Shown here in pieces: positions 12,791-58,888 of a stretch of DNA of 64,000 nt. The DNA comes from Octopus vulgaris (lineage: Eukaryota), in NCBI GenBank assembly GCA_951406725.2, contig OX597837.1, positions 26,536,001-26,600,000 of the forward strand. Reading direction: 5' to 3'. Position 1 is the first letter of the stretch, and each line of letters begins with the position of its first letter. The notes beneath the pieces are model-generated. The model ran no database searches. It saw only the letters and a list, made by a program, of their open reading frames with translations, and was not told the origin of the DNA. The position numbers and the translations under genes were made by a program.

Positions 12791-15328
12791 ATATCAAGTC
12801 ATCCAGTCAGTTCTGTCCAATTTTACCTGTTTTTTTAGATTTGAATGAAATTTAATAGTATTTGCAAATGTCTAATTCAATTAAAAATTATTTTTATGCA
12901 TTTGTGTACGTTTAAACTAATTCAATATTGTTTTACATAATAATAGACGGTGTCCACAAAGTCTGCGTACATGGGAATTAACACATACTTTTAAAACAAA
13001 ACAATTTTATTTAATTATAATGTTAATAAATAATATTTTCAAAGTGATTTCCATCATTTTCAATGCATAACTTGATGCACCTTGCAAAATTCAGGTGAAC
13101 TTGATTAAATAAGTCTACATTGCCATCAATTTCAGCACACTGACTGGTAATGCGTTCTCTCGTGTGTTTTAAATCTGTAATCTTTATTGAGTAAACTTTC
13201 TCTTTCAACATACCCCAGAAAAAGAAATCAAGGGGAGAAAGGTCTGGTGAACGAGGGGACCATTCCATATGACCCCTTCTTCCAATCTAGTGAGGGGGAA
13301 AAGTGTCATTAAATCAATCTCTAACAGTTGTGGCAAAATGAGTAGGGGCCCCATCCTGCTGAAACCAATTCGGAAGGCCCTCGCCTAGGCGCTCAATTTA
13401 AGATATTAATTTGTCTCTCAATATATTTGCATAAGTCTCATCCGTTACATGTTCAATGAAGAAGGGTCCTAGAACATGAGCTTTCCAAAAACCACACCAC
13501 ACCATCACCTTTTTGCTGTCTTGCTGTTTGGATAGATCCATCCAATGTGGATTACCTCGAGACCAGTATAGAATATTCTGTCTGTTGACCTCACCATTTA
13601 CATAAAACGTAGCTTTGTCACTGAACAACACAAAGTTTTTCGTAAAATTGATATTTTCATCCAATTTATCTGAAAACCATTCGCACGTCTACATTCGTCT
13701 ATCAGGATCGTCTTCATTTAAGTGATGCAATATCTGTAGGTTGTATCGATGAAACTTTTCCTCAACCAGCATTTTGTGGATGGTTGGTTTTGGAACACCT
13801 AACACCGTAGATGTCCGACGAAGTGATTTTTTGGGGCTAGCTAGCAGAAACTTTAGCCTCGACAGCCTCTTTAGTTTCATCTGAAGTCTTTGGTCGCCCG
13901 GAACGGGGTTTATCCGAAACACTGCCTGTTTCTTTAAATGTCTTGATCAATTTCCTGACGGCAGTAAAATAAATAGGTTGCCTACAAGGGTGTAGAAGAT
14001 TAAATTCTTCCGCAATTTTGCGATAAGACCATCCCTCTCGTCCACTTAATAATACAAACTCGATTCTTTCTTCTTTAGACAGATTCATCATTCGATCTGG
14101 GATTCTTTCTTCTGTAGAAAAAATAACAAATAAATTTAGAAAAGTAAAGTATTTTTTAATTTAATTTAAACAAAAGTAAAAAAGGAAAATTATTATTTCT
14201 TATGTTATGATTTTATTCCATAAACCCAGACTTCGTGGACACCCTAAAATTGCTTTGATTAAAACCCCTTTCAACATGGAAGTATCCAAGGAGCATTTAA
14301 GGCACATATAATTCTTTATGAGTACAATAAAGGTAACTCTGCTGCCGAAGTGACTCGAAACATACACTCAGTTTATGGCAAAGTGCTCGAATGAAAGAAC
14401 TTGCAGGAGATCGTCTGCAAAATTGAAGATGAATATCGAACAGGATGTCCAGTTGAGTTTGACAAGCTCCTTGAGGCATTATCAGTTGAAGAATTGGCAA
14501 TAAAGCTTACTTCAAACCATACAACAGTTCATCGTCATCTACAACAACGTGGAAAGATTCCTAAACTTGGAAAATAGGTGCCTTATGTATTGTCCGAAAG
14601 CAACCGCAAATCCCGAGTTGACATCTGCTCTTCTCTCCATTCTCGCAAACTCATTTCACCATTTTTCGATAGACTTGTGATGAAAAATGGATTTTCTATC
14701 GAAATGTTAGACGTCGTAAACAGTGGCTTGGTAAAAGGGAAAATTCTCAACCACAACCGAGAAGGGAACTTCATGAGAAAAAGGTTCTACTCTATCTGGT
14801 GCGATTGCAAAGGCGTAACTCACTTTATATTGTTACCACCTAATGCAGCAATCAATGCTCAAGTCTACTGTCAGCAATTAGAGCGTTTGAACCAAGCTTT
14901 GAAGGAAAAAAGAGCCGCTTTAGTGAGTCGAAAACGAGTGATGTTTCATCAGGACAATGCGCAACCCCACACTGCAAAGATCACATCACAGAAGATCGAA
15001 GGGGTCGGTTTGGAAAAATTTCTTCATCCAACTTATTCTCCCGACCTTACTCCTTCAGGATACCATTTGTTTCATAGTTTACAGAATTAGTAGGGGGATA
15101 CAACTTTCGCAAGCCAGGGGGAGGTCGAACCTGACATTTCAGAGTTCTTCGCTTTGAAACCAAAAGAGTTTTACGTTGATGGGATTAAAAAGCTTGTAAA
15201 TAGATGGAGGTAAGTCATAGATAATTAGGGAAAGTACATTGATGATTAACTTTCAATTAAATATAACATTTGATCACTTGTATTATTTATCCAAAATTCA
15301 GACAGAACTTATGGGATGATCTGAGATA
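12791..15328 (+). mobile_element. Decayed mariner (DD34D type), with a DD41D element inserted in its 5' region
   Basis: 5' TIR tatcaagtcatcc..agttctgtccaatttt (~12791) pairs with aaaattcagacagaacttatgggatgatctg (15293-15328); coding relic from 14276 (MEVSKEHLRHIILYEY) with FHQDNAQPHT and HPTYSPDLTPSGYHLF. Confidence 0.8.
12946..14246 (-). mobile_element. Decayed Tc1/mariner element of the DD41D (rosa/Visitor) family
   Basis: Imperfect ~28-bp TIRs (ggtgtccacaaagtctg / cagacttcgtggacaccc); relic reads KPRSGRP, VLFSD.ATF, QQDGAP..WSPRSPDLSPLD with 41 codons between the 2nd and 3rd Asp; stops and frameshifts. Confidence 0.85.
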
Positions 15329-15721: not shown

Positions 15722-16291
15722 TATTGGGTTGTCCGAAAGTTCTTGCAGATTTATAGTAGCTTATCTTTCGACTTATTTTAGAACATGTTTGAGTCCATAA
15801 AATAGGATTTGACTACACCTCCATTTGGAGCACAGTTTAATCTATCTTTTCGTGGAAGAAGGTTTATGTTCCAATAACCTGTGTTCATTCTGTAACCCTT
15901 TAAATTAAAAGATGAGAAAAATTCATTATCGGCATTTGATGCTTTGGGAACCAGACAAAAATTGCTGCAGCTTGGCTGGGGTGACTTACCCCACCCTCCA
16001 TATTCACCAGATATTACTCCTTCGGATTTCCACTTATTCAGGTCTCTGCAGAATAGTCTTAATGGTGAAAATTTCAATTCCTTAGATGACGTAAAAAGAT
16101 ACCTTGATGAATTATTTGCCTTGAAACCACCCCAATTCTGGGAAGAGGGTATTTTTAAGGTAAATGTAAGATGGAGACGTATTGTGCAACGAAATGGTTC
16201 AGATTTGGTTGATTAAAAATGTAATGGCAAGTATTTAGTGACCATGTACTTTCCTTTAAAAATCGGAACGAACTTTCCGGACAACCCAATA
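15722..16291 (+). mobile_element. Internally deleted mariner
   Basis: TIRs tattgggttgtccg.aaagttc / gaactttccggacaacccaata; ORF 15944-16216 contains LPHPPYSPDITPSDFHLF. Confidence 0.85.
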
Positions 16292-16742
16292 TAAACATGA
16301 AAAATAAAAACCTAAATTGAAAGAGGCGATTCAAATTTTTTCCTAACCTGCAGCCGTTTGTTGTACGAAGTATTCGAAATTCAGCCCTCCTTCCTCAGGG
16401 TTCCTTTCTCGGGGTAAAATCCAGCAGAAAGCAGTAAGGCACTACATAGTGAGTATTCAAGCGGTGAAAGTTCAGTTTTTGAGTATCGATTGTTTTATTA
16501 TTACCCACAAGGGGCCAACAAAGAGGGGACAATACAACCTGATGTGGGGTCAGATTCACGAATGAGGTTACAAAAGTATGAGTTTAAAAATTCCAAAAAT
16601 TCACAAAAATTGCAAAAATTATAAAAATCGAATGAGAAAAAACAGACCGGAAGACACTACAGGTGGAGTGGGGGCGGGTTCAGCTCGGACCCCACGAGCC
16701 CCGCCTCACCACTGATACTTTTGGTTTCGTTTTGATCTACAT

Positions 16743-19700
16743 TTATGTGGTGTCATCCATTCTCAACTTCCGTGCTACATCCTTCCATCGTTCTTCATAC
16801 ACTCTTTTAGTCAGGCATTTTCTCTCCAGCCCTATCTTCCTTTTCAGGTGGTAGATGAAGTAATTCATCAACCCAGGGCCGGATATGAACTTGCCTGACC
16901 GTATACCTTTCATTCTCGTCTTCCATATCACCTCCTTCGCAATTGCTACCACAACGAGAAAACAAGTCTTACCTTCTTTCGCGAGGAAATCTGGTGGGTC
17001 AATTTTTTTAATACACTCAGTCGACAGCTGTACTCTTCGTGTGCTTGACAACAGCTGTTCGGCATAAACCCACACCTCAGACACGTCCGAACAATGAACA
17101 ATAGCGTGCGGGACGGTTTCCCTATCCCGCCCGTATCTTGGACACATCGGACTGTCTTGGCCACCGTGCCTTGCGAGTTTATCCCGAACAGGTAGAGCTC
17201 CTCTGTAGCATTGCCATGCCAGAGACTTCTGGAAGTTGTCCAGAGTCTTCGGCTCGAACGTACGTCGGAACAGACTAGCCAGCTGATTATCGTCGAGACC
17301 CAGGGTTTCCCCCAAGGTGTCTTCACATTCCGCCTCTACCAACCCTCTATAGAAGAATGTGGTGGAACCCCCACCGCAGGCGTTGCCCGAGCGACGGAAT
17401 AGCAGGAGGGCCTTTCGACACTCCGTATACCATGTACCGAGTTTCGATCTACGATTCAACCAGGTTTCCCATCCACCGAAACTAGTGAACTTGGGAAACA
17501 TCAGTTTTGCTAACGGAGACCACACCCGTTCACCATCCAGGTAGAGCCACAGATGTCTTAACCTCAGCGCATGTCTGCGCATCATCAGCCAAGGCATCCC
17601 TAGCCCACCCTTTAACGGTTGTTGACAGCAAGTAGAGCGTTTCACAAGTGGTTTCCTGCCCTTCCACAGGAAGTAGAAGAGCTGTCTTTCCAACTTGGTC
17701 AACCACGAATCAGGGCATGGAACGACGGAAAGGCGGTAGATGATAACCGATGCGATAAACACATTGGCCACCTCCGCCCTCCCTTTCAAGGATAGCCACC
17801 GCCAAGACCAGGTCTTGGCTACTGCAGCCACCTTGCTCGTTACCTCGCCCCAATTCTTCTCTATTTGGAGGTCTGGACCGAACCAGACCCCTAGCAGTTT
17901 AATCGGACCCTCCGTCCAACGTCCCACGACGCTGTCAGGAGGCATCGACTTGCCTCTCCAGGTGCCGAGTTGCAAGCCGACTGACTTTTCGCGATTAACT
18001 TTTGCTCCTGTCACCGTCTCGTAATCCTCTATGGCCTTGCCTACTTTACATAGGTGGTCCATTTCGGTCACGATGATGGTGATGTCGTCCGCGTACGCTG
18101 ACACTGATTTTCCATTACCTGGCTGTCTCGGGATGCCGCTCAGTTTTCGCAGTAATGGCTCAAGAGCCATCACGTACAAAAGCGGGGAGAGCGGACACCC
18201 TTGACGAACCGAGCGTTTGATTTTGAACGGCTTCGACAAGAAGCCGTTCACCCGAACTACCGAGTCGATGTTGTCGTAAATTTGGATAATCCACCTGAGG
18301 AAGCCAAGGCCCAGCCCGAACTGTGCCAGAGCAGACACCAGGTAACGATGGTCGACCCTATCAAAAGCTTTGGATTGGTCTAAATGGACCAGTGCCCCAC
18401 CCTTGCCAGAATCACTATTAAACCCCTCTATAGTGTACCGCATTAGATGGAGATTATCCTGAATGGTTCTGCCCGGAACGGCACATGTCTGTGCCTCCCC
18501 GATCAGACCATCCGCGACACGCGCCAATCTTTTCGATAACACTTTGGCCAAAATCTTCAACTCTGTGTTTAGCAGAGTGATGGGCCTGAAATTATCAATG
18601 CACTCCCCCTTGCTCGGGTCCTTTCTGACGAGAGTCACCACTCCCCGGCGCACAGATCTGGGTATCAACCCGTTCTGCTGCCAGTTCGCATAGACTTCCG
18701 CCAGTAGGTGCCCGAACAAGTCTGGCATATTCTTATATAACTCGTAGGGTAGACCATCCAAACCCGGCGCCTTGCCCGCGCCGCAGTCCGCCATTGCCTC
18801 CACCACCTCCTCAGGCGTGATTGGCCCTTCACAGCCCTCCGCATCTCGCCCCGATAAGCGCGGCAGCCCGTCGAGTAGGTCCGTAAAGGCCCTCCTCCTA
18901 TCCAGTCCGCCGCACTCACCGAAAAGCTGAGCGAAGTGCTCCTGAAAGGCCTCACACATCTCCTCGGGTTCGTCTATCAACTCACCTTGTTGGTTCTTCA
19001 AAGATCGAATCGTGGCATCGTTGCCATTCCGGGCTTCCACCACTCGGGCCCATCTCACGGCGTTGATTCCTTCACATCCCATATGACGGATTCTAGCCCT
19101 GACAATGCAGCCCATGTGTTTGGCCTCGAGGTGCTGGTTTAACACCAGTCTCTTGGACGCCACCTGAGCCGCAGAGCCAGTTTTCATGGCTTCCTCTAAT
19201 TCCTTAACTAGAGTAGTTTCCCTTCTAGCCTCTCTAGACACTACTCCTATGCTATATCTAATAGACTCAAACTTGATGGCTCGTTTGAGGGCGTACCACC
19301 ATTTGTTATTAATGATGGCACCAGACAGCGCCCTCTGAATTATGGTCCTCATCCGGTCTCTGTACTCCTTAATCGCCAAAAGGGACGTATTAAGTTTCCA
19401 GTAACCGGATCCTCTCTTTCTAACCTTATCTATGTCAAGCTTACAAGTGACCATTTTATGATCACTGTAGCTGATCGGGTAAAACTGTGGACGCTTAGCT
19501 ATTTTACTGTCTACCTTTCTAATTAGAATTCTATCTATGTATGTCCTGGAAGATCCGTCGCTGTTTGACCATGTCCACAATGGAGCGTTCGGAAATTCCA
19601 ACCTATAAGGATCTGCTAGCTCAAAGCGGCTTAGCAGTTCCAGGAAGCATGGGTTACCTTTTCTATCATTCGAGCCAACACAATCTACATCCGCTTTGCA

Positions 19701-20137
19701 AATTGTGTTAAAGTCTCCTAGCACAACTATTGAATGCGAAGTACCGAGAAAGTTCTCTAGATCACGAAAATAATCACTTTGCCCTTTATTACTGCAGGGT
19801 GCGTAAATTGCAACCAGTCTGATAACTTTACCGTTACTGAACGTCAAATCCATGACGACCAGCCTACCTTCTGGGTCTGAAAAATTAACTTTTTCTCAAA
19901 AACCCGGTTTCTTTTTAGTAGGACCAACACCCCACTCCCGCCTGCAGGACTGCCAGGAGAGAAAAAACTCTCGTAGCCGTCAAACAGTGGGAGTAGATCT
20001 CTTGGCCCCTTTAACCGGGTTTCTGTAGCAACAATAACATCCAAATTGCGCGACCTGATATCATTAAGGAAGCGACCTTGCTTCCCGCTTGATCCCAGTC
20101 CGCGCACATTTAAACAACCAACACAAATGTAGTCCAT
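16743..20137 (-). CDS. Tx1-like ORF2 (AP endonuclease, reverse transcriptase, C-terminal zinc motif), copy 1; 1-bp indel in an A run near 19880
   Basis: NVRGL, GDFN, SDH, YWKLN, KAPGLDG, RPITLLN, KAFDRV, RQGCPLSP, YADD; split into ORFs 19844-20140 and 16743-19853. Confidence 0.9.
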
Positions 20138-20145
20138 CACTTACC

Positions 20146-21475
20146 TTATATCGGTAGTTTGGCTTGTTCGGCAGTTTCGCCTTCTTCTTCATTTTTTTTT
20201 CCTTGGCTCGTGGGGAGTCCGACGTAGGCCCTCGTATAGATATGGAGACATGTCCAGTCTCAGAGGGCCCACGTCGTGGAAGAACTCGGATTTTATCCTC
20301 CTGTAGTCCTTCCGGCCTATTTTGTATATGATGAAGTCTTTCATCTTCCTTATACGTTCCACCTTGGCCATGGCTGCCAACACATTGACAAGTCTGTTGT
20401 TAGTAGCCTTAATGGCCATAAATGAAGAAGTAACCTCTTTCCTTTTCTTCAGGTTTTCTTCTTCTTGAGGGGTGGTTTCAGTTTTCCGTTTTTTTTTGGT
20501 AACTTTAGACCACCCCTCCTCTTTTTCGTTTTCTTTTTCCTTTTCTGCAGCTTTTTCCACCTCTTTGGTTTCCTTTTTTCCTCCGTTTCTTCTTTCTCCG
20601 ACGGTTCTTCTGCCTGCGGTTTCGGTTGACACTCCGCTCTCACGTGCCCCTTCTTTCCGCAGCCGAAGCACCTCGGTTTTCTTCCTTCTACAAATACTAG
20701 AACTCGCTCCTCCTCATCTAGCCTCAGCACCTCTGGTATTTCTTCCAGAGTCTGGGCCTCTGCTTGTATAGCCATTGTTATGATCTGGCCCTGCCAAAAT
20801 CCCTCCTCCTCCACTGTAGCTTGGAGGATGTTGATTTTTTCTTTCAGGCCCAGCATCACTGCCGCCACCAGGCATGAGGCGTCTGCCTCTGGGGGAATAT
20901 TTCTCATTACTATCTTTGAAGTCCTTCTTCCTTTGTACAAGGGTAGAAGGACTAGATTTCCCGCTTTCTGAGGTTCTGTAGATAGCCTCTTAGCTATTTC
21001 TTCGGTCCTGAACCTCACTTCTACTGTTCCGAACCGTCTTCCTCTGTTTATATAAGTGATATCTTTTCTGATTGTCTTCAGGCACTCCTCTATTTTACAT
21101 TCTTCCACTTTTTGTATGCTTTTTGTAGTCATGCTGTATGTCTTGTAGATAATTCTTTTCTTTTCAATCTCTTCCTTTTTTTCCATATCTTTTTTCACTG
21201 CAATTTCATTTCCTTCTTTCTTTAGAAGGTCTTCATATTTCTCTAGGTTTTCTATATCTATGTTTTTCTGTTTGCGTCCAACAACTTCCGCAAACTTCTT
21301 TGCTGGGGCCTTTTGTCCTGGCGTTACCGCCGATTCTTTTTCCGGTGTCACCGCCGGCGTGCTTCTCTCACCCGAGGTTTGAGATTCTTCATCACCTGAG
21401 ATAGGTGAATAGGTAATGGGGAAATCCATTTCGAATTTTTCTTCCAGTTTGCATTCACTGCCTTCCAAAGACATT
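20146..21475 (-). CDS. Tx1-like ORF1 (gag-like, zinc knuckle), copy 1; homopolymer frameshifts near 20580 and 20200
   Basis: CFGCGKKGHVRAEC knuckle; colinear with the intact ORF1 of copy 2. Confidence 0.8.
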
Positions 21476-21987
21476 CTGGCTTTGCAGCCGTTAGTAGAAA
21501 ATATTTTTTTTTTTTTTTTTTTTTTTTGTTTTTGGATGTGTTTCGTACACGAAGGCACACAATAATTCCCCCGCGGGGGAGGAACTACGTACACAACTTT
21601 CGCGCGAAGGCCACTAACCGTCTTATTGAAAAGACACAAAATAACAATATTAACACAGCAACAATAAACTACTAACTTTCAATTCAACAACAATATTTCA
21701 GACAAAAAACTCACGTTTCGTTTTTGAGTATCTATTGTTTTATTATTACCCACAAGGGGCCAACAAAGAGGGGACAATACAACCTGATGTGGGGTCAGAT
21801 TCACGAATGAGGTTACAAAAGTATGAGTTTAAAAATTCCAAAAATTCACAAAAATTGCAAAAATTATAAAAATCGAATGAGAAAAAACAGACCGGAAGAC
21901 ACTACAGGTGGAGTGGGGGCGGGTTCAGCTCGGACCCCACGAGCCCCGCCTCACCACTGATACTTTTGGTTTCGTTTTGATCTACAT

Positions 21988-24900
21988 TTATGTGGTGTCA
22001 TCCATTCTCAACTTCCGTGCTACATCCTTCCATCGTTCTTCATACACTCTTTTAGTCAGGCATTTTCTCTCCAGCCCTATCTTCCTTTTCAGGTGGTAGA
22101 TGAAGTAATTCATCAACCCAGGGCCGGATATGAACTTGCCTGACCGTATACCTTTCATTCTCGTCTTCCATATCACCTCCTTCGCAATTGCTACCACAAC
22201 GAGAAAACAAGTCTTACCTTCTTTCGCGAGGAAATCTGGTGGGTCAATTTTTTTAATACACTCAGTCGACAGCTGTACTCTTCGTGTGCTTGACAACAGC
22301 TGTTCGGCATAAACCCACACCTCAGACACGTCCGAACAATGAACAATAGCGTGCGGGACGGTTTCCCTATCCCGCCCGCATCTTGGACACATCGGACTGT
22401 CTTGGCCACCGTGCCTTGCGAGTTTATCCCGAACAGGTAGAGCTCCTCTGTAGCATTGCCATGCCAGAGACTTCTGGAAGTTGTCCAGAGTCTTCGGCTC
22501 GAACGTACGTCGGAACAGACTAGCCAGCTGATTATCGTCGAGACCCAGGGTTTCCCCCAAGGTGTCTTCACATTCCGCCTCTACCAACCCTCTATAGAAG
22601 AATGTGGTGGAACCCCCACCGCAGGCGTTGCCCGAGCGACGGAATAGCAGGAGGGCCTTTCGACACTCCGTATACCATGTACCGAGTTTCGATCTACGAT
22701 TCAACCAGGTTTCCCATCCACCGAAACTAGTGAACTTGGGAAACATCAGTTTTGCTAACGGAGACCACACCCGTTCACCATCCAGGTAGAGCCACAGATG
22801 TCTTAACCTCAGCGCATGTCTGCGCATCATCAGCCAAGGCATCCCTAGCCCACCCTTTAACGGTTGTTGACAGCAAGTAGAGCGTTTCACAAGTGGTTTC
22901 CTGCCCTTCCACAGGAAGTAGAAGAGCTGTCTTTCCAACTTGGTCAACCACGAATCAGGGCATGGAACGACGGAAAGGCGGTAGATGATAACCGATGCGA
23001 TAAACACATTGGCCACCTCCGCCCTCCCTTTCAAGGATAGCCACCGCCAAGACCAGGTCTTGGCTACTGCAGCCACCTTGCTCGTTACCTCGCCCCAATT
23101 CTTCTCTATTTGGAGGTCTGGACCGAACCAGACCCCTAGCAGTTTAATCGGACCCTCCGTCCAACGTCCCACGACGCTGTCAGGAGGCATCGACTTGCCT
23201 CTCCAGGTGCCGAGTTGCAAGCCGACTGACTTTTCGCGATTAACTTTTGCTCCTGTCACCGTCTCGTAATCCTCTATGGCCTTGCCTACTTTACATAGGT
23301 GGTCCATTTCGGTCACGATGATGGTGATGTCGTCCGCGTACGCTGACACTGATTTTCCATTACCTGGCTGTCTCGGGATGCCGCTCAGTTTTCGCAGTAA
23401 TGGCTCAAGAGCCATCACGTACAAAAGCGGGGAGAGCGGACACCCTTGACGAACCGAGCGTTTGATTTTGAACGGCTTCGACAAGAAGCCGTTCACCCGA
23501 ACTACCGAGTCGATGTTGTCGTAAATTTGGATAATCCACCTGAGGAAGCCAAGGCCCAGCCCGAACTGTGCCAGAGCAGACACCAGGTAACGATGGTCGA
23601 CCCTATCAAAAGCTTTGGATTGGTCTAAATGGACCAGTGCCCCACCCTTGCCAGAATCACTATTAAACCCCTCTATAGTGTACCGCATTAGATGGAGATT
23701 ATCCTGAATGGTTCTGCCCGGAACGGCACATGTCTGTGCCTCCCCGATCAGACCATCCGCGACACGCGCCAATCTTTTCGATAACACTTTGGCCAAAATC
23801 TTCAACTCTGTGTTTAGCAGAGTGATGGGCCTGAAATTATCAATGCACTCCCCCTTGCTCGGGTCCTTTCTGACGAGAGTCACCACTCCCCGGCGCACAG
23901 ATCTGGGTATCAACCCGTTCTGCTGCCAGTTCGCATAGACTTCCGCCAGTAGGTGCCCGAACAAGTCTGGCATATTCTTATATAACTCGTAGGGTAGACC
24001 ATCCAAACCCGGCGCCTTGCCCGCGCCGCAGTCCGCCATTGCCTCCACCACCTCCTCAGGCGTGTGATTGGCCCTTCACAGCCCTCCGCATCTCGCCCCG
24101 ATAAGCGCGGCAGCCCGTCGAGTAGGTCCGTAAAGGCCCTCCTCCTATCCAGTCCGCCGCACTCACCGAAAAGCTGAGCGAAGTGCTCCTGAAAGGCCTC
24201 ACACATCTCCTCGGGTTCGTCTATCAACTCACCTTGTTGGTTCTTCAAAGATCGAATCGTGGCATCGTTGCCATTCCGGGCTTCCACCACTCGGGCCCAT
24301 CTCACGGCGTTGATTCCTTCACATCCCGTATGACGGATTCTAGCCCTGACAATGCAGCCCATGTGTTTGGCCTCGAGGTGCTGGTTTAACACCAGTCTCT
24401 TGGACGCCACCTGAGCCGCAGAGCCAGTTTTCATGGCTTCCTCTAATTCCTTAACTAGAGTAGTTTCCCTTCTAGCCTCTCTAGACACTACTCCTATGCT
24501 ATATCTAATAGACTCAAACTTGATGGCTCGTTTGAGGGCGTACCACCATTTGTTATTAATGATGGCACCAGACAGCGCCCTCTGAATTATGGTCCTAATC
24601 CGGTCTCTGTACTCCTTAATCGCCAAAAGGGACGTATTAAGTTTCCAGTAACCGGATCCTCTCTTTCTAACCTTATCTATGTCAAGCTTACAAGTGACCA
24701 TTTTATGATCACTGTAGCTGATCGGGTAAAACTGTGGACGCTTAGCTATTTTACTGTCTACCTTTCTAATTAGAATTCTATCTATGTATGTCCTGGAAGA
24801 TCCGTCGCTGTTTGACCATGTCCACAATGGAGCGTTCGGAAATTCCAACCTATAAGGATCTGCTAGCTCAAAGCGGCTTAGCAGTTCCAGGAAGCATGGG

Positions 24901-25385
24901 TTACCTTTTCTATCATTCGAGCCAACACAATCTACATCCGCTTTGCAAATTGTGTTAAAGTCTCCTAGCACAACTATTGAATGCGAAGTACCGAGAAAGT
25001 TCTCTAGATCACGAAAATAATCACTTTGCCCTTTATTACTGCAGGGTGCGTAAATTGCAACCAGTCTGATAACTTTACCGTTACTGAACGTCAAATCCAT
25101 GACGACCAGCCTACCTTCTGGGTCTGAAAAAATTAACTTTTTCTCAAAAACCCGGTTTCTTTTTAGTAGGACCAACACCCCACTCCCGCCTGCAGGACTG
25201 CCAGGAGAGAAAAAACTCTCGTAGCCGTCAAACAGTGGGAGTAGATCTCTTGGCCCCTTTAACCGGGTTTCTGTAGCAACAATAACATCCAAATTGCGCG
25301 ACCTGATATCATTAAGGAAGCGACCTTGCTTCCCGCTTGATCCCAGTCCGCGCACATTTAAACAACCAACACAAATGTAGTCCAT
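21988..25385 (-). CDS. Tx1-like ORF2, copy 2; 2-bp insertion near 24063
   Basis: ORFs 23910-25388 (APE) and 21988-24051 (RT, YADD, CPRCG..ETVPHAIVHC). Confidence 0.9.
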
Positions 25386-25393
25386 CACTTACC

Positions 25394-26725
25394 TTATATC
25401 GGTAGTTTGGCTTGTTCGGCAGTTTCGCCTTCTTCTTCATTTTTTTTTTCCTTGGCTCGTGGGGGAGTCCGACGTAGGCCCTCGTATAGATATGGAGACA
25501 TGTCCAGTCTCAGAGGGCCCACGTCGTGGAAGAACTCGGATTTTATCCTCCTGTAGTCCTTCCGGCCTATTTTGTATATGATGAAGTCTTTCATCTTCCT
25601 TATACGTTCCACCTTGGCCATGGCTGCCAACACATTGACAAGTCTGTTGTTAGTAGCCTTAATGGCCATAAATGAAGAAGTAACCTCTTTCCTTTTCTTC
25701 AGGTTTTCTTCTTCTTGAGGGGTGGTTTCAGTTTTCCGTTTTTTTTTGGTAACTTTAGACCACCCCTCCTCTTTTTCGTTTTCTTTTTCCTTTTCTGCAG
25801 CTTTTTCCACCTCTTTGGTTTCCTTTTTTTCCTCCGTTTCTTCTTTCTCCGACGGTTCTTCTGCCTGCGGTTTCGGTTGACACTCCGCTCTCACGTGCCC
25901 CTTCTTTCCGCAGCCGAAGCACCTCGGTTTTCTTCCTTCTACAAATACTAGAACTCGCTCCTCCTCATCTAGCCTCAGCACCTCTGGTATTTCTTCCAGA
26001 GTCTGGGCCTCTGCTTGTATAGCCATTGTTATGATCTGGCCCTGCCAAAATCCCTCCTCCTCCACTGTAGCTTGGAGGATGTTGATTTTTTCTTTCAGGC
26101 CCAGCATCACTGCCGCCACCAGGCATGAGGCGTCTGCCTCTGGGGGAATATTTCTCATTACTATCTTTGAAGTCCTTCTTCCTTTGTACAAGGGTAGAAG
26201 GACTAGATTTCCCGCTTTCTGAGGTTCTGTGGATAGCTTCTTAGCTATTTCTTCGGTCCTGAACCTCACTTCTACTGTTCCGAACCGTCTTCCTCTGTTT
26301 ATATAAGTGATATCTTTTCTGATTGTCTTCAGGCACTCCTCTATTTTACATTCTTCCACTTTTTGTATGCTTTTTGTAGTCATGCTGTATGTCTTGTAGA
26401 TAATTCTTTTCTTTTCAATCTCTTCCTTTTTTTCCATATCTTTTTTCACTGCAATTTCATTTCCTTCTTTCTTTAGAAGGTCTTCATATTTCTCTAGGTT
26501 TTCTATATCTATGTTTTTCTGTTTGCGTCCAACAACTTCCGCAAACTTCTTTGCTGGGGCCTTTTGTCCTGGCGTTACCGCCGATTCTTTTTCCGGTGTC
26601 ACCGCCGGCGTGCTTCTCTCACCCGAGGTTTGAGATTCTTCATCACCTGAGATAGGTGAATAGGTAATGGGGAAATCCATTTCGAATTTTTCTTCCAGTT
26701 TGCATTCACTGCCTTCCAAAGACAT
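25394..26725 (-). CDS. Tx1-like ORF1, intact, 443 aa from the first ATG (MSLEGSECK)
   Basis: Open frame with CX2CX4HX4C knuckle, lysine/glutamate-rich linker and WSKVTKKKRK basic motif, directly upstream of ORF2. Confidence 0.9.
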   Translation of the reverse strand: MSLEGSECKLEEKFEMDFPITYSPISGDEESQTSGERSTPAVTPEKESAVTPGQKAPAKKFAEVVGRKQKNIDIENLEKYEDLLKKEGNEIAVKKDMEKKEEIEKKRIIYKTYSMTTKSIQKVEECKIEECLKTIRKDITYINRGRRFGTVEVRFRTEEIAKKLSTEPQKAGNLVLLPLYKGRRTSKIVMRNIPPEADASCLVAAVMLGLKEKINILQATVEEEGFWQGQIITMAIQAEAQTLEEIPEVLRLDEEERVLVFVEGRKPRCFGCGKKGHVRAECQPKPQAEEPSEKEETEEKKETKEVEKAAEKEKENEKEEGWSKVTKKKRKTETTPQEEENLKKRKEVTSSFMAIKATNNRLVNVLAAMAKVERIRKMKDFIIYKIGRKDYRRIKSEFFHDVGPLRLDMSPYLYEGLRRTPPRAKEKKNEEEGETAEQAKLPI

Positions 26726-27149
26726 TCTGGCTTTGCAGCCGTTAGTAGAAAATATTTTTTTTTTTTTTTTTGTTTTTTTTTGTTTTTGGATGTGTTTCGT
26801 ACACGAAGGCACACAATAATTCCCCCCGCGGGGGGAACTACGTACACAACCTTCGCGCGAAGGCCACTAACCGTCTTATTGAAAAGACACAAAATAACAA
26901 TATTAACACAGCAACAATAAACTACTAACTTTCAATTCAACAACAATATTTCAGACAAAAAAACTCACGTTTCGTTTTTGAGTATCGATGTTCACAATTT
27001 TTTTTTCAAGAGAATTACCACGTTTAAATAAGAAATGAAAATCATTTAAGTTAATCATGCAATTTTGGGAATATTCCATTTTTTACTGATATATACTACA
27101 ATAACAAAGAAATTATTTAAGATTTTAGATTTATGCATAAGTATTCTTA

Positions 27150-27465
27150 TGGTTCCAAAACGCATGGTTCTCAGTTCAGCCCCACTGTGTGGTAACTTGG
27201 CATGTGTCTTCTACTATAGCCTGAGACCAACCAAAGCCTTGTCAGTGGATTTTGTAGACAGAAACTGAAAGAAATCAATCGTATATATTATCTATGTATG
27301 TATGTAAGTCTGTGTGTGTGTCTTTGTGTTTCTCCCTCATCACTGCTTCACAAATGGTGTTCGTTTATTTACATCCCCATAACATACTGGTTTCACAAGA
27401 AGAAACTGATAGAATAAGTACCAGGCTTATCAAAATTTAAAAAAGCTCTACGCAGTGTCTCACAT
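27150..27465 (+). mobile_element. Diverged SINE family A; its 3' part plus flank is tandemly duplicated
   Basis: catggttctcagttcagccccactg..; block 27247-27465 recurs at 30228-30450. Confidence 0.7.
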
Positions 27466-27544
27466 ATATATGGATTTCGTGGACAGGAATTGAAACAAAT
27501 CAATCGTATATATATATATGTATATATGTAAGTGTATGTGTTTT

Positions 27545-30220
27545 AGTATTGGCAACATGAATGACAATGGCCAGAGACTACTTGAATTTTGCACATACCA
27601 TAACCTGTGCATCACCAACACATTCTTTCCCAACAAGACATCCCACAAGGCATCTTGGAGACATCCAAGATCTCACCACTGGCATCAGTTGGATCTCATC
27701 ATTACACGAAGATCCTTTCTGAATTCTGTTCAACTGACCCGTAGCGCGGATTGTGACACAGATCATTCACTAATAAGGGTGAGGATTCTGCCTAAAAAGT
27801 CCATCACTCCAAGAAAATGAGCCAACCACGCATTAACACTGCCAGAACCTCGGACCCTACACTGCGACAATGTTTTGCTGTTTCTATCAAGGTTGCCCTC
27901 AGTAGCTGCCCAACCTCCTCTGCTGAAAGTAGGTGGAATTATATCAGGGAAGCTTTGTATACCACATCAATAGATACTTTCGGAATGAGAGAAAGGTAAA
28001 ACCCAGATTTTGTTCAGTGCTGGGCTCTCAGAGCTGGAAACAATTATCGAAGCAAAGCGTGCAGCTCTGATGCAATACAAGAGTGTTTCTTCTACAAAGT
28101 CACTCGAAGAACTCAGAAAGGCAAGAAATAAAACCCAACTCACTGCCAGACGCTGTGCAAATGGGTATTGACAGGAAATCTGTCAGAGTATCCAGTCAGC
28201 TGCTGACAGTGGTGACACCCGTGGGATGTATGCCGGTTTGAAGAAGGCCCTCGGTCCATCCGCAACCACCTCAGCCCCTCTGAAATCAACTACTGGAGAT
28301 CTCATCAAGGACCAAAGCAAGCAAAAGGATACATGGATGGAGTACTACCAGGATCCCAACACACGAGAGGTAGCTGAGGCTGCAATCGAGGGTGTCAAGA
28401 TCTTGCCAGTCATGTGTGAACTTGACAGTCTGCCATCTATAGCAGAGCTCACCAAATCTATTGACTCCCTAGCAAGTAACAAGGCTCCGGGGAAAGACGG
28501 TATCCCCTTAGAGATCATCAAAACCGGCAAAAATACCATCCTGCTTCGGCACATTCATGAGCTTCTGTGTCAGTGCTGGTAAGAGGGTACAGTCCCTCAG
28601 AATATGCGGGATGCTAACATCATTACGCTTTACAAAAATAAAAGTGACCGTGATGATTGTAACAATTACACAGTTGGAAAGGCCTCTGCTCGCATTATCC
28701 TGTCCAGGCTGCAACTAATTGCTTCTCGAATTTATCCAGAATCGCAGTGTGGCTTTAGAAGCAGATCAACTATTGACATGATATTCTCCATACGCCAACT
28801 TCAGAAGTCCAGAGAGCAGAACATGGCATTATATATGGCCTTCATTGATCTGACAAAGGGCTTTGACTTGGTAAGTAGAAAAGGCCTCTTCATCCTGCTC
28901 CAAAAAATCGGATGTCCACCAAAGCTGCTGAGGATCATCAAATCATTCCATGCTAATATGCAAGGCACCATACAGCACAATGGTTCAACATCAGCCGCCT
29001 TCCAAATAAAAAATGGGGTAGAGCAAGGTTGTGTCCTTGCTCCTACATTATTTGGCATCTTCTTCTCGCTGCTGCTGTCACATGCCTTTGAGACATCAGA
29101 TGATGGAGTGTTTCTGCACAGTAGAAGTGATGGGAAACTGTTTAATCTCTCGCGTCTGCGTGCCAAGACCAAAATCTCAGAAGCGTCCTGATCAAGGAGA
29201 TGCTATTTGCTGATGATGCCGCTCTGGTATCACACACAGAAGAAGCCCTACGAAGGCTCAGCAACTGTTTTGAGCAAGCATTTGGCAACTTTGGCTTAGT
29301 TATCAGCCTCAAGAATACCAACATCATGGGTCAGGCTACATCGGACATCCCAAACACACATATTAGAGACCACAGAGTATAGGAGGTGGAGAAGTTTACC
29401 TATCTTGGCTCTACCGTCACCTACAATCTATCCCTTGATGCTGAGCTCAATATACGCATTGGCAAGGCAGCTGCTGTGATGGCCCAACTCACCAAACGCG
29501 CATGGGACAACAATAAGCTGACCAAGACCACAAAAATGAAGATTTACCAGGCATGTGTACTTAGCACTCTACTGTATGACTTTGACGCCATACACACGCC
29601 ATACGACGCCATACGTCGCCTAAATATCTTTCACTTGTGCTGTCTCCGGAAAATCCATCGCATCAAATGGCAGAATCATGTCCCTAACAAAGATGTCCTC
29701 AAGCAAGCAGGAATACCAAGCATGTTTGCACTCTTCACACAAAGACGTATGAGATCGCTTGGACATGTTAGCCGTATGGAAGATGGCAGAATCCCCAAGG
29801 ACATACTCAACGGAGAGCTTGCTAGGGGCACTAGGTCTGTGGGAAGACCGTTCTTATGATACAAGGATGTTTGCAAAAGGGACATGAATGCCTGCAACAT
29901 CAATATTACCAACTGGGAAGCAGTTGCCAGCAACCGTGGAGATTGGCGATGTATCGTAAAAGAGGGAACACAAAGGAGTGACATAGTGAGAAAGGAGAAA
30001 TGGAAAGACAAGAAAAGACGTCAACAAAAAACTATGACATTAAGACCAGTCAGGCAAAGTCTTCGCTACATTTACGGCACCTGCCAGAGGGAGTGTTTGT
30101 CCCGGATAGGACTACACAGCCACAGCAAGAGATGTATTAGGACATGAAATGTAAAAGCCGGACTAGATTATTTTATGCGCAACTCCATTGTCTCCTGAGA
30201 CAAAAAGGATGCCAACAACA
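27545..30220 (+). mobile_element. 5'-truncated decayed RTE (Bov-B-like) LINE
   Basis: NGQRLLEFC, HQLDLII, DCDTDHSL (APE); KAPGKDGIP, PESQCGFR, AFIDLTKGFD, QGCVLAPTLF, LFADD (RT); C-terminal C..C..RIGLHSH; 3' gtctcctgagac..gatgcc(aac)n tail. Confidence 0.92.
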
Positions 30221-32322: not shown

Positions 32323-32584
32323 TGTGTGTCTGTGTGTAGTTTGACAAGTGTCAATGAACGAAACTCTCGCCCCTCGAGTCACTCTGTTGCTTCTGCTAAA
32401 TATTGATAAACACATATATGATGAGCTTTTTCAGATTCCGTCAACCACATCTACTCACAAGGGTTTAGTCGACTCAGGGCTATAGTAGAAACACCCGCTC
32501 AAAGTGCCACGCAGCTGGACTGAACCCGGAACGGCTTACAACACAGTCACGCCTGCTTCTATTCACATATATACATGATATATA

Positions 32585-32814
32585 TTTCTTTTGCTACCCA
32601 CAAGGGGCTAAACATAGAGGGGACAAACAAGGACAGACAAACGGATTAAGTCGATTACATCGACCCAGTGCGAAACTGGTACTTTATTTATCGACCCCGA
32701 GAGGATGAAAGGCAAAGTCGACCTCGGCGGAATTTGAACTGAGAACGTAGCGGCAGACGAAATACTGCTAAGCATTTCGCCCGGCGTGCTAACGCTTCTG
32801 CCAGCTCGCCGCCT
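32585..32814 (-). mobile_element. SINE family B, Tx1-type tail
   Basis: Full head, core and tail ttgtcccctctatgtttagccccttgtgggtag. Confidence 0.85.
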
Positions 32815-32954
32815 CTTGCATATAAATCTATGTGCGTATATAGACACAGTTATACATACACATACCTAGTCATAGATGGCTACACACACTAACACACACG
32901 TACACATACACATGCAAGTAGTCACACGAGTGTACACACAACCACACACATACG

Positions 32955-39990: not shown

Positions 39991-40220
39991 AGGCGGCGAG
40001 CTGGCAGAAACGTTAGCACGCCGGGCGAAATGCGTAGCTGTATTTCGTCTGCCGTTACGGTCTGAGTTCAAATTTCGCCGAGGTCGACCTTGCCTTTCAT
40101 CCTTTCGGGGTCGATAAATTAAGTATCAGTTATGCACTGGGGTCGCTGTAATCGACTTAATCCGTTTGTCTGTCCTTGTTTGTCCCATTTGTGTTTAGCC
40201 CCTTGTGGGTAGTAAAGAAA
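39991..40220 (+). mobile_element. SINE family B, Tx1-type tail
   Basis: aggcggcgagctggcagaa..gagttcaaat head; tail tttagccccttgtgggtagtaaagaaa. Confidence 0.85.
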
Positions 40221-40237
40221 TATATATATCTATCTAT

Positions 40238-58472: not shown

Positions 58473-58888
58473 AAGGCGGCGAGCTGGCAGAATCGTTAGC
58501 ACGCCGGGCGAAATGCGTAGTCGTATTTCGTCTGCCGTTACGTTCTGAGTTCAAATTCCGCCCAGTACGACTTTGCCTTTCATCCTTTCGGGGTCGATAA
58601 ATTAAGTACCAGTTACGCACTGGGGTCGATGTAATCGACTTAATCCGTTTGTCTGTCCTTGTTTGTCCTCCCTGTGTTTAGCCCCTTGTGGGTAGTAAAG
58701 AAATAGGTATTTCGTCTGCCGTTACGTTCTGAGTTCAAATTCCGCCGAGGTCGACTTTGCCTTTCATCCTTTCGGGGTCGATAAATTAAGTACCTGTTAC
58801 GCACTGGGGTCGATGTAATCGACTTAATCCGTTTGTCTGTCCTTGTTTGTCCTCTCTGTGTTTAGCCCCTTGTGGGCAGTAAAGAAAT
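58473..58888 (+). mobile_element. SINE family B tandem (full plus 5'-truncated unit)
   Basis: TSD ggtattgtttt at 58458-58468 and 58890-58900. Confidence 0.85.

Follow-up and report, generated by a model that had tools for sequence, protein, structure and literature searches.

How two almost identical, full-length retrotransposons came to stand head to tail, with the same short sequence before, between, and after them, is the question raised by a 64,000-nt stretch of the Octopus vulgaris genome (GenBank assembly GCA_951406725.2, contig OX597837.1, positions 26,536,001 to 26,600,000; here called the window, in whose coordinates positions are given). An initial annotation, made from the letters alone, had described two near-intact Tx1 long interspersed elements (LINEs) with a triplicated 16-bp target site and had left three explanations standing: repeat insertion into a regenerated target, unequal exchange between target-site duplications (TSDs), and two haplotypes assembled in tandem. 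We think that the pair is probably a real dimer of a young L1-group (Tx1-type) LINE, which would have arisen when two target-primed insertions, each a separate event, hit one short sequence.

Layout of the head-to-tail pair

The 16-mer, T, lies at 16475 (exact), at 21720 (one mismatch, G>T at 21733), and at 26974 (exact). No further copy was found on either strand of the window with up to 3 mismatches allowed, and the chance expectation for one exact copy there is ~6e-5. Along the forward strand, the order is T-LINE-T-LINE-T, with both copies (A and B) on the minus strand, head to tail. The features of the pair, with untranslated regions abbreviated UTR, open reading frames ORF, and reverse transcriptase RT, are as follows.

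16475..16490, minus strand: T1, on the 3' side of copy A, running on into the left flank
16491..16742, minus strand: copy A 3' UTR, ending in a non-poly(A) tail, the final ~45 nt of which are similar to the 3' tail of a short interspersed element (SINE)
16743..20137, minus strand: copy A ORF2, with APE endonuclease, RT, and zf-RVT and one -1 homopolymer break near 19880
20146..21474, minus strand: copy A ORF1, with a CX2CX4HX4C knuckle and three -1 homopolymer differences from copy B
21475..21719, minus strand: copy A 5' UTR, with splice-donor-like GTGAGT and a branch-point-like motif plus AG
21720..21735, minus strand: T2, the central target copy, not matching T1 and T3 at base 3 as read along the element (21733)
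21736..21987, minus strand: copy B 3' UTR
21988..25385, minus strand: copy B ORF2, with APE motifs GDFN, IDRI, and SDH, RT motif YADD, and a +2 dinucleotide break near 24062
25394..26725, minus strand: copy B ORF1, open, 443 aa, with splice-donor-like AAGGTAAGT at the stop codon
26726..26973, minus strand: copy B 5' UTR
26974..26989, minus strand: T3, adjoining the 5' end of copy B, with the same sequence as T1

Unit A spans 16475-21719 (5245 nt), and unit B spans 21720-26973 (5254 nt); the copies were 99.6% alike, with 7 substitutions and 9 indels. One substitution lies in T and six lie in the 5229-nt body, giving a substitution divergence of 0.11% between the bodies. This agrees with the earlier count of at least six substitutions, and the amino acid differences cited for it (PRYG/PRCG, RHMG/RHTG, and AKRL/AKKL) are all real. 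All nine indels fall in homopolymer or dinucleotide runs, and five of them are inside ORFs: single-base homopolymer losses in A at 19880, 20192, 20212, and 20574 and a GT-dinucleotide gain in B at 24062. ORF2 has a single break in each copy, each at a site that is open in the other copy, and ORF1 of copy B is open throughout; the earlier statement that the frameshifts sit in simple runs and are intact in the other copy thus holds. We also compared four public runs in detail, as assembled contigs from other samples rather than as reads. The A-specific deletions at 19879, 20211, and 20573 were missing from most of the covering contigs, and position 19350 had the base of copy B in all four runs. 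For these reasons, most of the ORF breaks are probably consensus errors or private changes. Copy A also has a Tyr at a zinc finger Cys position; the Cys is kept in 17 of 18 aligned relatives, the remaining one having a gap.

Comparison of the 10 kb on either side of the pair revealed no shared stretch with ≥90% identity. The exact length of the TSD is uncertain (13 to 16 nt or more), as T starts with bases similar to the A-rich tail of the element. The triplicated layout and its positions, with one substitution in T2, were therefore as first described, and the 16-bp length is what needed refinement.

An L1-group LINE, likely of Tx1 type

As in L1-group LINEs, there are two ORFs, no long terminal repeats, a TSD within the 10- to 20-nt range, and the corresponding ORF2 domain set: Pfam matched Exo_endo_phos, RVT_1, and zf-RVT in ORF2, whose closest PDB structure was human L1 ORF2p (218 bits). 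Pfam gave no match to ORF1, in which the CX2CX4HX4C knuckle is visible in the sequence and whose Atlas look-alikes (0.90-0.92) carry zf-CCHC and ZCCHC3-type RNA-binding domains. The knuckle and the look-alikes correspond to the type I ORF1 of the Tx1 clade, which has an RRM and/or a CCHC knuckle and is not Transposase_22 (PMC5203782).

Searches with phmmer gave 430 to 436 bits to proteins of a U2-inserted branch (P0061 and P0059) versus 218 bits to human L1. FastTree RT trees (SH-like support only; built from relatives rather than named Tx1 or L1-clade references, with a piece of a decayed RTE-like LINE from the window as the outgroup in one of them) placed the element outside the U2- and 5S-inserted branches, in a separate, well-supported group with P0001-P0018. 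RT identity was ~40% to the U2-inserted branch and 33 to 36% to the 5S-inserted branch. When 40 of 80 metagenome loci were scanned with Rfam, U2 sequence was found in 6 and 5S in 2, and the LINE tail directly abuts the RNA gene in L015 and L016 (U2) and in L017 and L027 (5S). The U2 pattern is that of Keno and the 5S pattern that of Mutsu (PMC4494074, PMC3706591). At the 3' end of the window element, neither U2 nor 5S was found, there being no Rfam match in the window. Set beside its U2- and 5S-inserted relatives, and not beside named Tx1 or L1 references from Repbase, the element is an L1-group LINE that is likely of Tx1 type; the Tx1 label of the initial annotation stands to that extent. The "TX1" of PMC4176376 refers to mutant protein names, not to the Tx1 clade, and was discarded.

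Two side observations concern these relatives. U2-branch LINEs L006, L011, L015, and L020 have a U2-derived piece upstream of their ORFs (positions 165-900), which recalls U2-headed Tx1 families (PMC4494074). A more distant relative (31%), L120:2840-9941, lies between U1 snRNA sequences, of which the downstream one is altered in its 5' part, and it is possibly a U1-targeting LINE.

A sister group forms long head-to-tail arrays

A scan of genome contigs returned 47 related loci, 40 of them from one metagenome-assembled genome (MAG), G001, which had 85 matches. Labeled as a bacterium, G001 contains at least 16 contigs (~0.5 Mb) of animal DNA built of LINE arrays (C3-C19; L081-L118, L121, and L127-L162); these are contamination of the reference genome set. 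Stretches from 17 contigs were fetched, and 16 were analyzed, the other (C16) having tandem tRNA genes and no element match. The RT of these elements is 50 to 52% identical to that of the window element, and they form the sister group of the window element plus P0001 (SH-like support of 99).

All 16 contigs carry head-to-tail copies on the same strand, with 65 near-full ORF2 matches in total (2 to 11 per contig) and a period of mostly 6.3 to 6.9 kb; on C9, 13 3' ends extend across ~70 kb. Array building is found in two sub-branches of the group (C13 and the rest). No tRNA or Rfam family turned up in the array units in two scans, one of 12 loci and one of 11 loci. A 3'-end motif located 58 ends on 13 of the 16 contigs, missing C6, C10, and C18. 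Each 3' end is followed by a family-specific stretch, a spacer of ~17 to 18 nt where the end of an array bounds its length. At all four array 3' ends examined (C5, C9, C17, and C19), the unique flank opens with 12 to 18 nt of the family spacer, with 0 to 2 mismatches, and beyond the spacer these flanks are unrelated save for common dispersed repeats. Sister families with ORF2s ~93 to 96% alike in DNA have clearly different spacers of ~17 nt. Some 5'-truncated copies are preceded by the spacer (two on C9 and one on C19), an arrangement that reads as a mark of sequential target-primed reverse transcription. Moreover, subtypes alternate within C7, C15, and C19, and neighboring copies are 3 to 149 mismatches apart.

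Contig C17 has the layout flank-T-LINE-T-LINE-T-flank, with an 18-nt T whose central copy differs from the 3'-terminal copy at base 3, as in the window. The two C17 copies are only 90% identical and so are not a simple duplication: of their 418 mismatches, almost all fall within the first 2.5 kb from the 5' end, and ORF2 is almost the same; their near-identical ORF2s and very different 5' UTR/ORF1 regions (L131 and L145) suggest module swapping between families. The largest family has 31 junctions. Among these, a TCGAA-type spacer precedes all 6 copies that have one 5' subtype and none of the 19 that have another; of the remaining 6 junctions, 1 leads into a third subtype, 3 into truncated copies, and 2 into flank. 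Since the copies are not independent, we give no P value for this linkage. Internal spacers on C5 and C9 are 1 to 2 nt different from the terminal genomic site.

Recent activity and target junctions in public runs

Part of the window stretch was found in 20 of 24 listed public runs, 12 of which contained half of its words or more, under eight organism codes; none was listed as an RNA run. In run X8, four listed pieces with a depth of 395 to 606 had 3 differences from copy A in 1194 nt; an X1 piece with a depth of 3071 had 0 differences in 156 nt; and a 919-nt X5 piece with a depth of 1501 had 21 differences. The X5 contigs were long, uniform, and of high depth. The earlier supposition that the family has been active recently is thus supported. 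Relative to the median single-copy-like depth, the 5' part of the element had a depth of ~37x in X1, 23x in X8, and 161x in X5. Contig depth is not copy number, and we therefore read these values only as pointing to tens to low hundreds of young copies. In Octopus vulgaris, 13 recently active L1-Tx1 families with 421 near-full-length young insertions have been tabulated (PMC13282606), so young, full-length Tx1 LINEs are to be expected in octopus DNA.

Two contigs, among 12 listed of 27 joint rows, bear on the target. The X8 contig, with a depth of 64.6 versus ~23 for single-copy-like sequence, joins T plus 3 more target bases to the 5' end of a variant of the element and reads as an independent junction at the same target. 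In X1, a variant flank is joined to a related tail ~16 nt from the site, at a depth of 72.8. Under the criterion of Kojima, target preference is said to apply when more than 20% of flanks are of one kind.

Origin of the pair

In the explanation that we favor, the endonuclease would nick at the start of T, recognizing perhaps its first 10 to 16 nt; the tail, which ends in bases similar to those with which the target begins, would prime at the nick; and insertion would generate a TSD of 13 to 16 nt or more. The first copy, probably A, would have inserted at T and duplicated it, and the duplicate T on the 5' side of A would have stayed usable and been entered by its sibling B, giving T-B-T-A-T in element sense. 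The changed central base could come from priming or from a version of T carried by the family. Of the three options in the initial annotation, repeat insertion into a regenerated target is best supported, as arrays are routine in the sister group and the C17 copies are too different for duplication. The probability of a substitution at the body rate within the 16-nt T is ~0.018, and that within its 4 junction-side bases is ~0.005. Exchange between T1 and T3 should have left T2 unchanged, yet T2 differs. The TSD layout of R1-like tandem insertion is present in the window itself; the marks of separate events, namely, truncated and mixed-subtype copies, are seen in the sister group only.

Several observations weigh against two separate insertions. 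The copies are as little diverged, as complete, and as alike at their 5' junctions as a duplication or a read-through dimer would also predict. Identity to the sister group over ORF2 is no more than ~41%, and of the four array 5' ends examined there, T is clear at just one (C17), being partial at C19 and C3 and barely present at C4. The two array ends of C19 carry different local sequences, which indicates that recombination also shaped the G001 arrays. These contigs are, moreover, probably a biased sample, binned because they are arrays, and as such they do not show the frequency of solitary copies. The X8 joint does not reveal whether tail or flank follows T. Finally, no piece bridging 21700-21770 was among the listed matches in the four public runs, which are contigs from other samples; we count this neither way.

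It is also conceivable, though unlikely, that a dimer was inserted in a single event: a read-through transcript of an array, or an RT template jump between two T-starting RNAs, would have been copied as B-T-A, so that only the outer Ts make up the true TSD, the central one having come along from a donor locus. This would explain why the outer Ts are identical and the central T alone differs, and it fits the internal spacers of C5 and C9 as well as the G001 spacer variant that goes with the 5' subtype of the downstream copy. It requires, however, an untruncated 10.5-kb cDNA; the spacer linkage is also possible through DNA-level block exchange, among copies that are not independent; and three of the four G001 array 5' ends examined are without a clear family spacer. 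We regard as rather improbable a duplication at the DNA level, by unequal exchange or slippage between the TSDs (or alleles) of one insertion and subsequent divergence. The 99.6% identity and identical ends of the copies agree with it, as do some G001 array neighbors only 3 to 6 mismatches apart, which are consistent with unequal exchange. However, such a duplication predicts that T2 equals T1 and T3 (p ~0.02 for the observed difference at the body rate), it leaves the C17 dimer and the truncated copies of the sister group unexplained, and 16 nt is very little homology for exchange.

Least probable of all, in our judgment, is an assembly artifact, with two haplotypes placed in tandem or a misjoin made by way of a tandem junction present at some other locus. 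Indels outnumber substitutions 9:7, and every indel is in a simple run, as in an unpolished long-read consensus; the three copy A deletions absent from most covering contigs point the same way. No bridging read was seen. Against this, the flanks are not duplicated, the junction has its own variant base, and the sister group has many junctions of the same kind (58 3' ends listed); an overlap of 16 nt would also be too short for an assembler to join, so the junction must presumably have been present in the reads.

Target and flanking sequence

The sequences next to the pair are the following.

16292..16474, no strand: left flank, multicopy looking, with no Rfam or Pfam match
26990..27150, no strand: right flank, 21% GC, with no Rfam match
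15722..16291, plus strand: mariner-like remnant (context), internally deleted, with terminal inverted repeats (TIRs), inserted at a TA ~185 nt from T1

At left-flank position 16335, depth was ~59, 50, and 202 times the single-copy-like depth in three runs and tracked the depth of the element across them (ratio of 1.25 to 2.2). The left flank thus looks multicopy, as would be the case for a transposable element (TE)-targeting type such as Tx1L or Tx1-Mar, but no TIRs were found around the insertion site, Pfam gave 0 credible matches for 11 flank peptides, and comparison of flank peptides with the collected LINE proteins and loci gave nothing convincing. Rfam returned 0 matches at gathering level for the whole window and, for both flanks at E values up to 10, only low scores far below gathering. 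The left flank folded no better than its shuffles (z of -0.54 and +1.41), and viral contigs contained no relative and no match to the target. Likenesses of the target to U3, U4atac, H/ACA, SL-RNA, and telomerase RNA were considered and dropped. A 32-aa exon-like flank frame was likewise rejected: its 2 matches among 1.84 billion proteins both added up weak repeats, of which the best single domain reached 7.3 bits.

On the minus strand, a TATA-like box at 27022-27029 precedes T3 by ~35 nt, and ~130 nt past T1 there is a donor-like site (16341-16349); as speculation, the empty target could be a minus-strand promoter plus first exon. Three decayed Tc1/mariner-type pieces stand in a row left of the target (~12950-14240, 14250-15320, and 15722-16291), and Pfam, run on two mariner pieces, matched Transposase_1 in the middle one and nothing in the other. 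The divergence of its TIRs is a weak argument for the age of the mariner-like remnant, as the first 22 nt differ by one indel, and we dropped it. Just right of the pair, a decayed LINE at 27540-30130 (plus strand), which we take to be RTE-like, is inserted in a SINE with a duplicated flank.

Splice-site-like motifs

In both copies, the 5' UTR (21475-21719 and 26726-26973, minus strand) has a donor-like hexamer, GTGAGT in copy A, beginning 5 nt in from its 5' end and, immediately ahead of the ORF1 ATG, a branch-like motif with an AG. This framing by donor and branch/AG together was found in 5 of 20,000 shuffles, a post hoc figure. A donor-like hexamer ~50 nt into the unit is present in 3 of 8 G001 representatives and missing in 5. 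At the ORF1 stop, just before ORF2, donor-like TAAGGTAAGT occurs in the window at ~20140-20150 and ~25388-25398 (minus strand) and is kept in 39 of 40 G001 loci (65 occurrences in G001), with proteins only 41% identical to those of the window element. The window element and the largest G001 family share a second DNA motif, a T run and then GTCTGA, at the 5' end.

A SINE that shares the LINE tail

Copies of an abundant SINE with an A- and B-box-like head occur in the window at the following positions.

32580-32815, minus strand: one copy
39991-40221, plus strand: one copy
58474-58888, plus strand: two copies in tandem

The last ~45 nt of the LINE align to all 4 of these SINE tails with scores of 52 to 57, which 0 of 2000 shuffles reached; when 2667 tiles of the window were ranked, the first six all came from these SINE copies, and the best other tile scored 36. 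At 58.5 kb, a full SINE copy is followed by a 5'-truncated copy, with an apparent ~11-nt TSD outside the two. Depth in the public runs peaks at the SINE-like tail (16515), and in X14, which may be an RNA run, the SINE continuation appears as a loose end. Judged from sequence, the LINE and the SINE share a tail in the manner of a stringent-type LINE and its partner SINE. The SINE copies are not at T, and their 3' flanks start with a loosely similar motif; the driver of the SINE may therefore be a relative of the window family. We found no named partner LINE for this SINE in the accessible parts of PMC4824008, PMC4758252, and PMC3747384.

Comparison with known systems

Tandem insertion at a TSD and target preference in Tx1 elements are already known, and a dimer alone is ordinary; the interest lies in the array-building lineage. 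We offer tentatively, as a possibility that we would not yet call probable, that a Tx1-type lineage not described before builds trains, of which the pair would be the minimal example. Each of its families would regenerate, and partly carry at the 5' end, a private landing pad of 16 to 18 nt, and arrays of intact copies, up to ~70 kb long, would form at interstitial sites outside ribosomal DNA (rDNA) and telomeres; the 5' splice donor may let a copy use upstream transcription, and the window member may drive a major host SINE. We did not find a Tx1-type lineage building long arrays with family-specific spacers in the literature, which was searched in part and whose supplements could hold a closer precedent. 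Spacer differences among close families provide a natural series on how the APE endonuclease or RNA-target pairing shifts specificity, and the lineage lets the transition from LINE to satellite be watched. Intact LINEs that are specific for a short sequence are also relevant to tools for RNA-templated gene insertion. In addition, short-read assemblies collapse arrays of this kind, which can also end up as contaminants of bacterial MAGs (G001 is an example).

Compared with the Tx1 clade, the element resembles Tx1L in Tx1D, Keno, Mutsu, and Tx1-Mar in its two-ORF L1-group anatomy, CCHC ORF1, ~16-nt TSD, and putative target preference (PMC4494074, PMC3706591). It differs from known Tx1 elements in that its target is not an Rfam RNA and it lies outside the U2 and 5S branches. 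The accessible parts of these two papers do not describe arrays of many full-length autonomous copies for the clade, and that of the report on Octopus vulgaris L1-Tx1 families gives no target sites, tandem junctions, or SINE partners (PMC13282606). Tandem SINEU-3 copies are known to sandwich a TSD (PMC4494074).

In Drosophila 28S rDNA arrays, new R1 copies are reported to enter the TSD that borders an older R1 on its 5' side (PMC2718515). Like R1, the window element is an APE-type LINE arranged head to tail with a TSD between copies; unlike R1, which belongs to another clade and has a fixed rDNA target, it has no rRNA or other Rfam match at its site, and its sister families have their own spacers in unrelated flanks. 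TE dimers form by double insertion, and those that keep the target at the junction have been taken to indicate site preference and recent activity and to seed satellite arrays (10.1101/158386). The non-LTR tandems among the dimers of McGurk and Barbash mostly include a 5'-truncated copy, whereas both copies are full length in the window and the sister group has already reached arrays of ~70 kb (10.1101/158386). Zepp of Coccomyxa is likewise an L1-group LINE that clusters in its own copies; in contrast with Zepp, whose copies are nested and form one cluster per chromosome, the copies here stand whole and in series, each set off from the next by a short spacer (PMC3446292).

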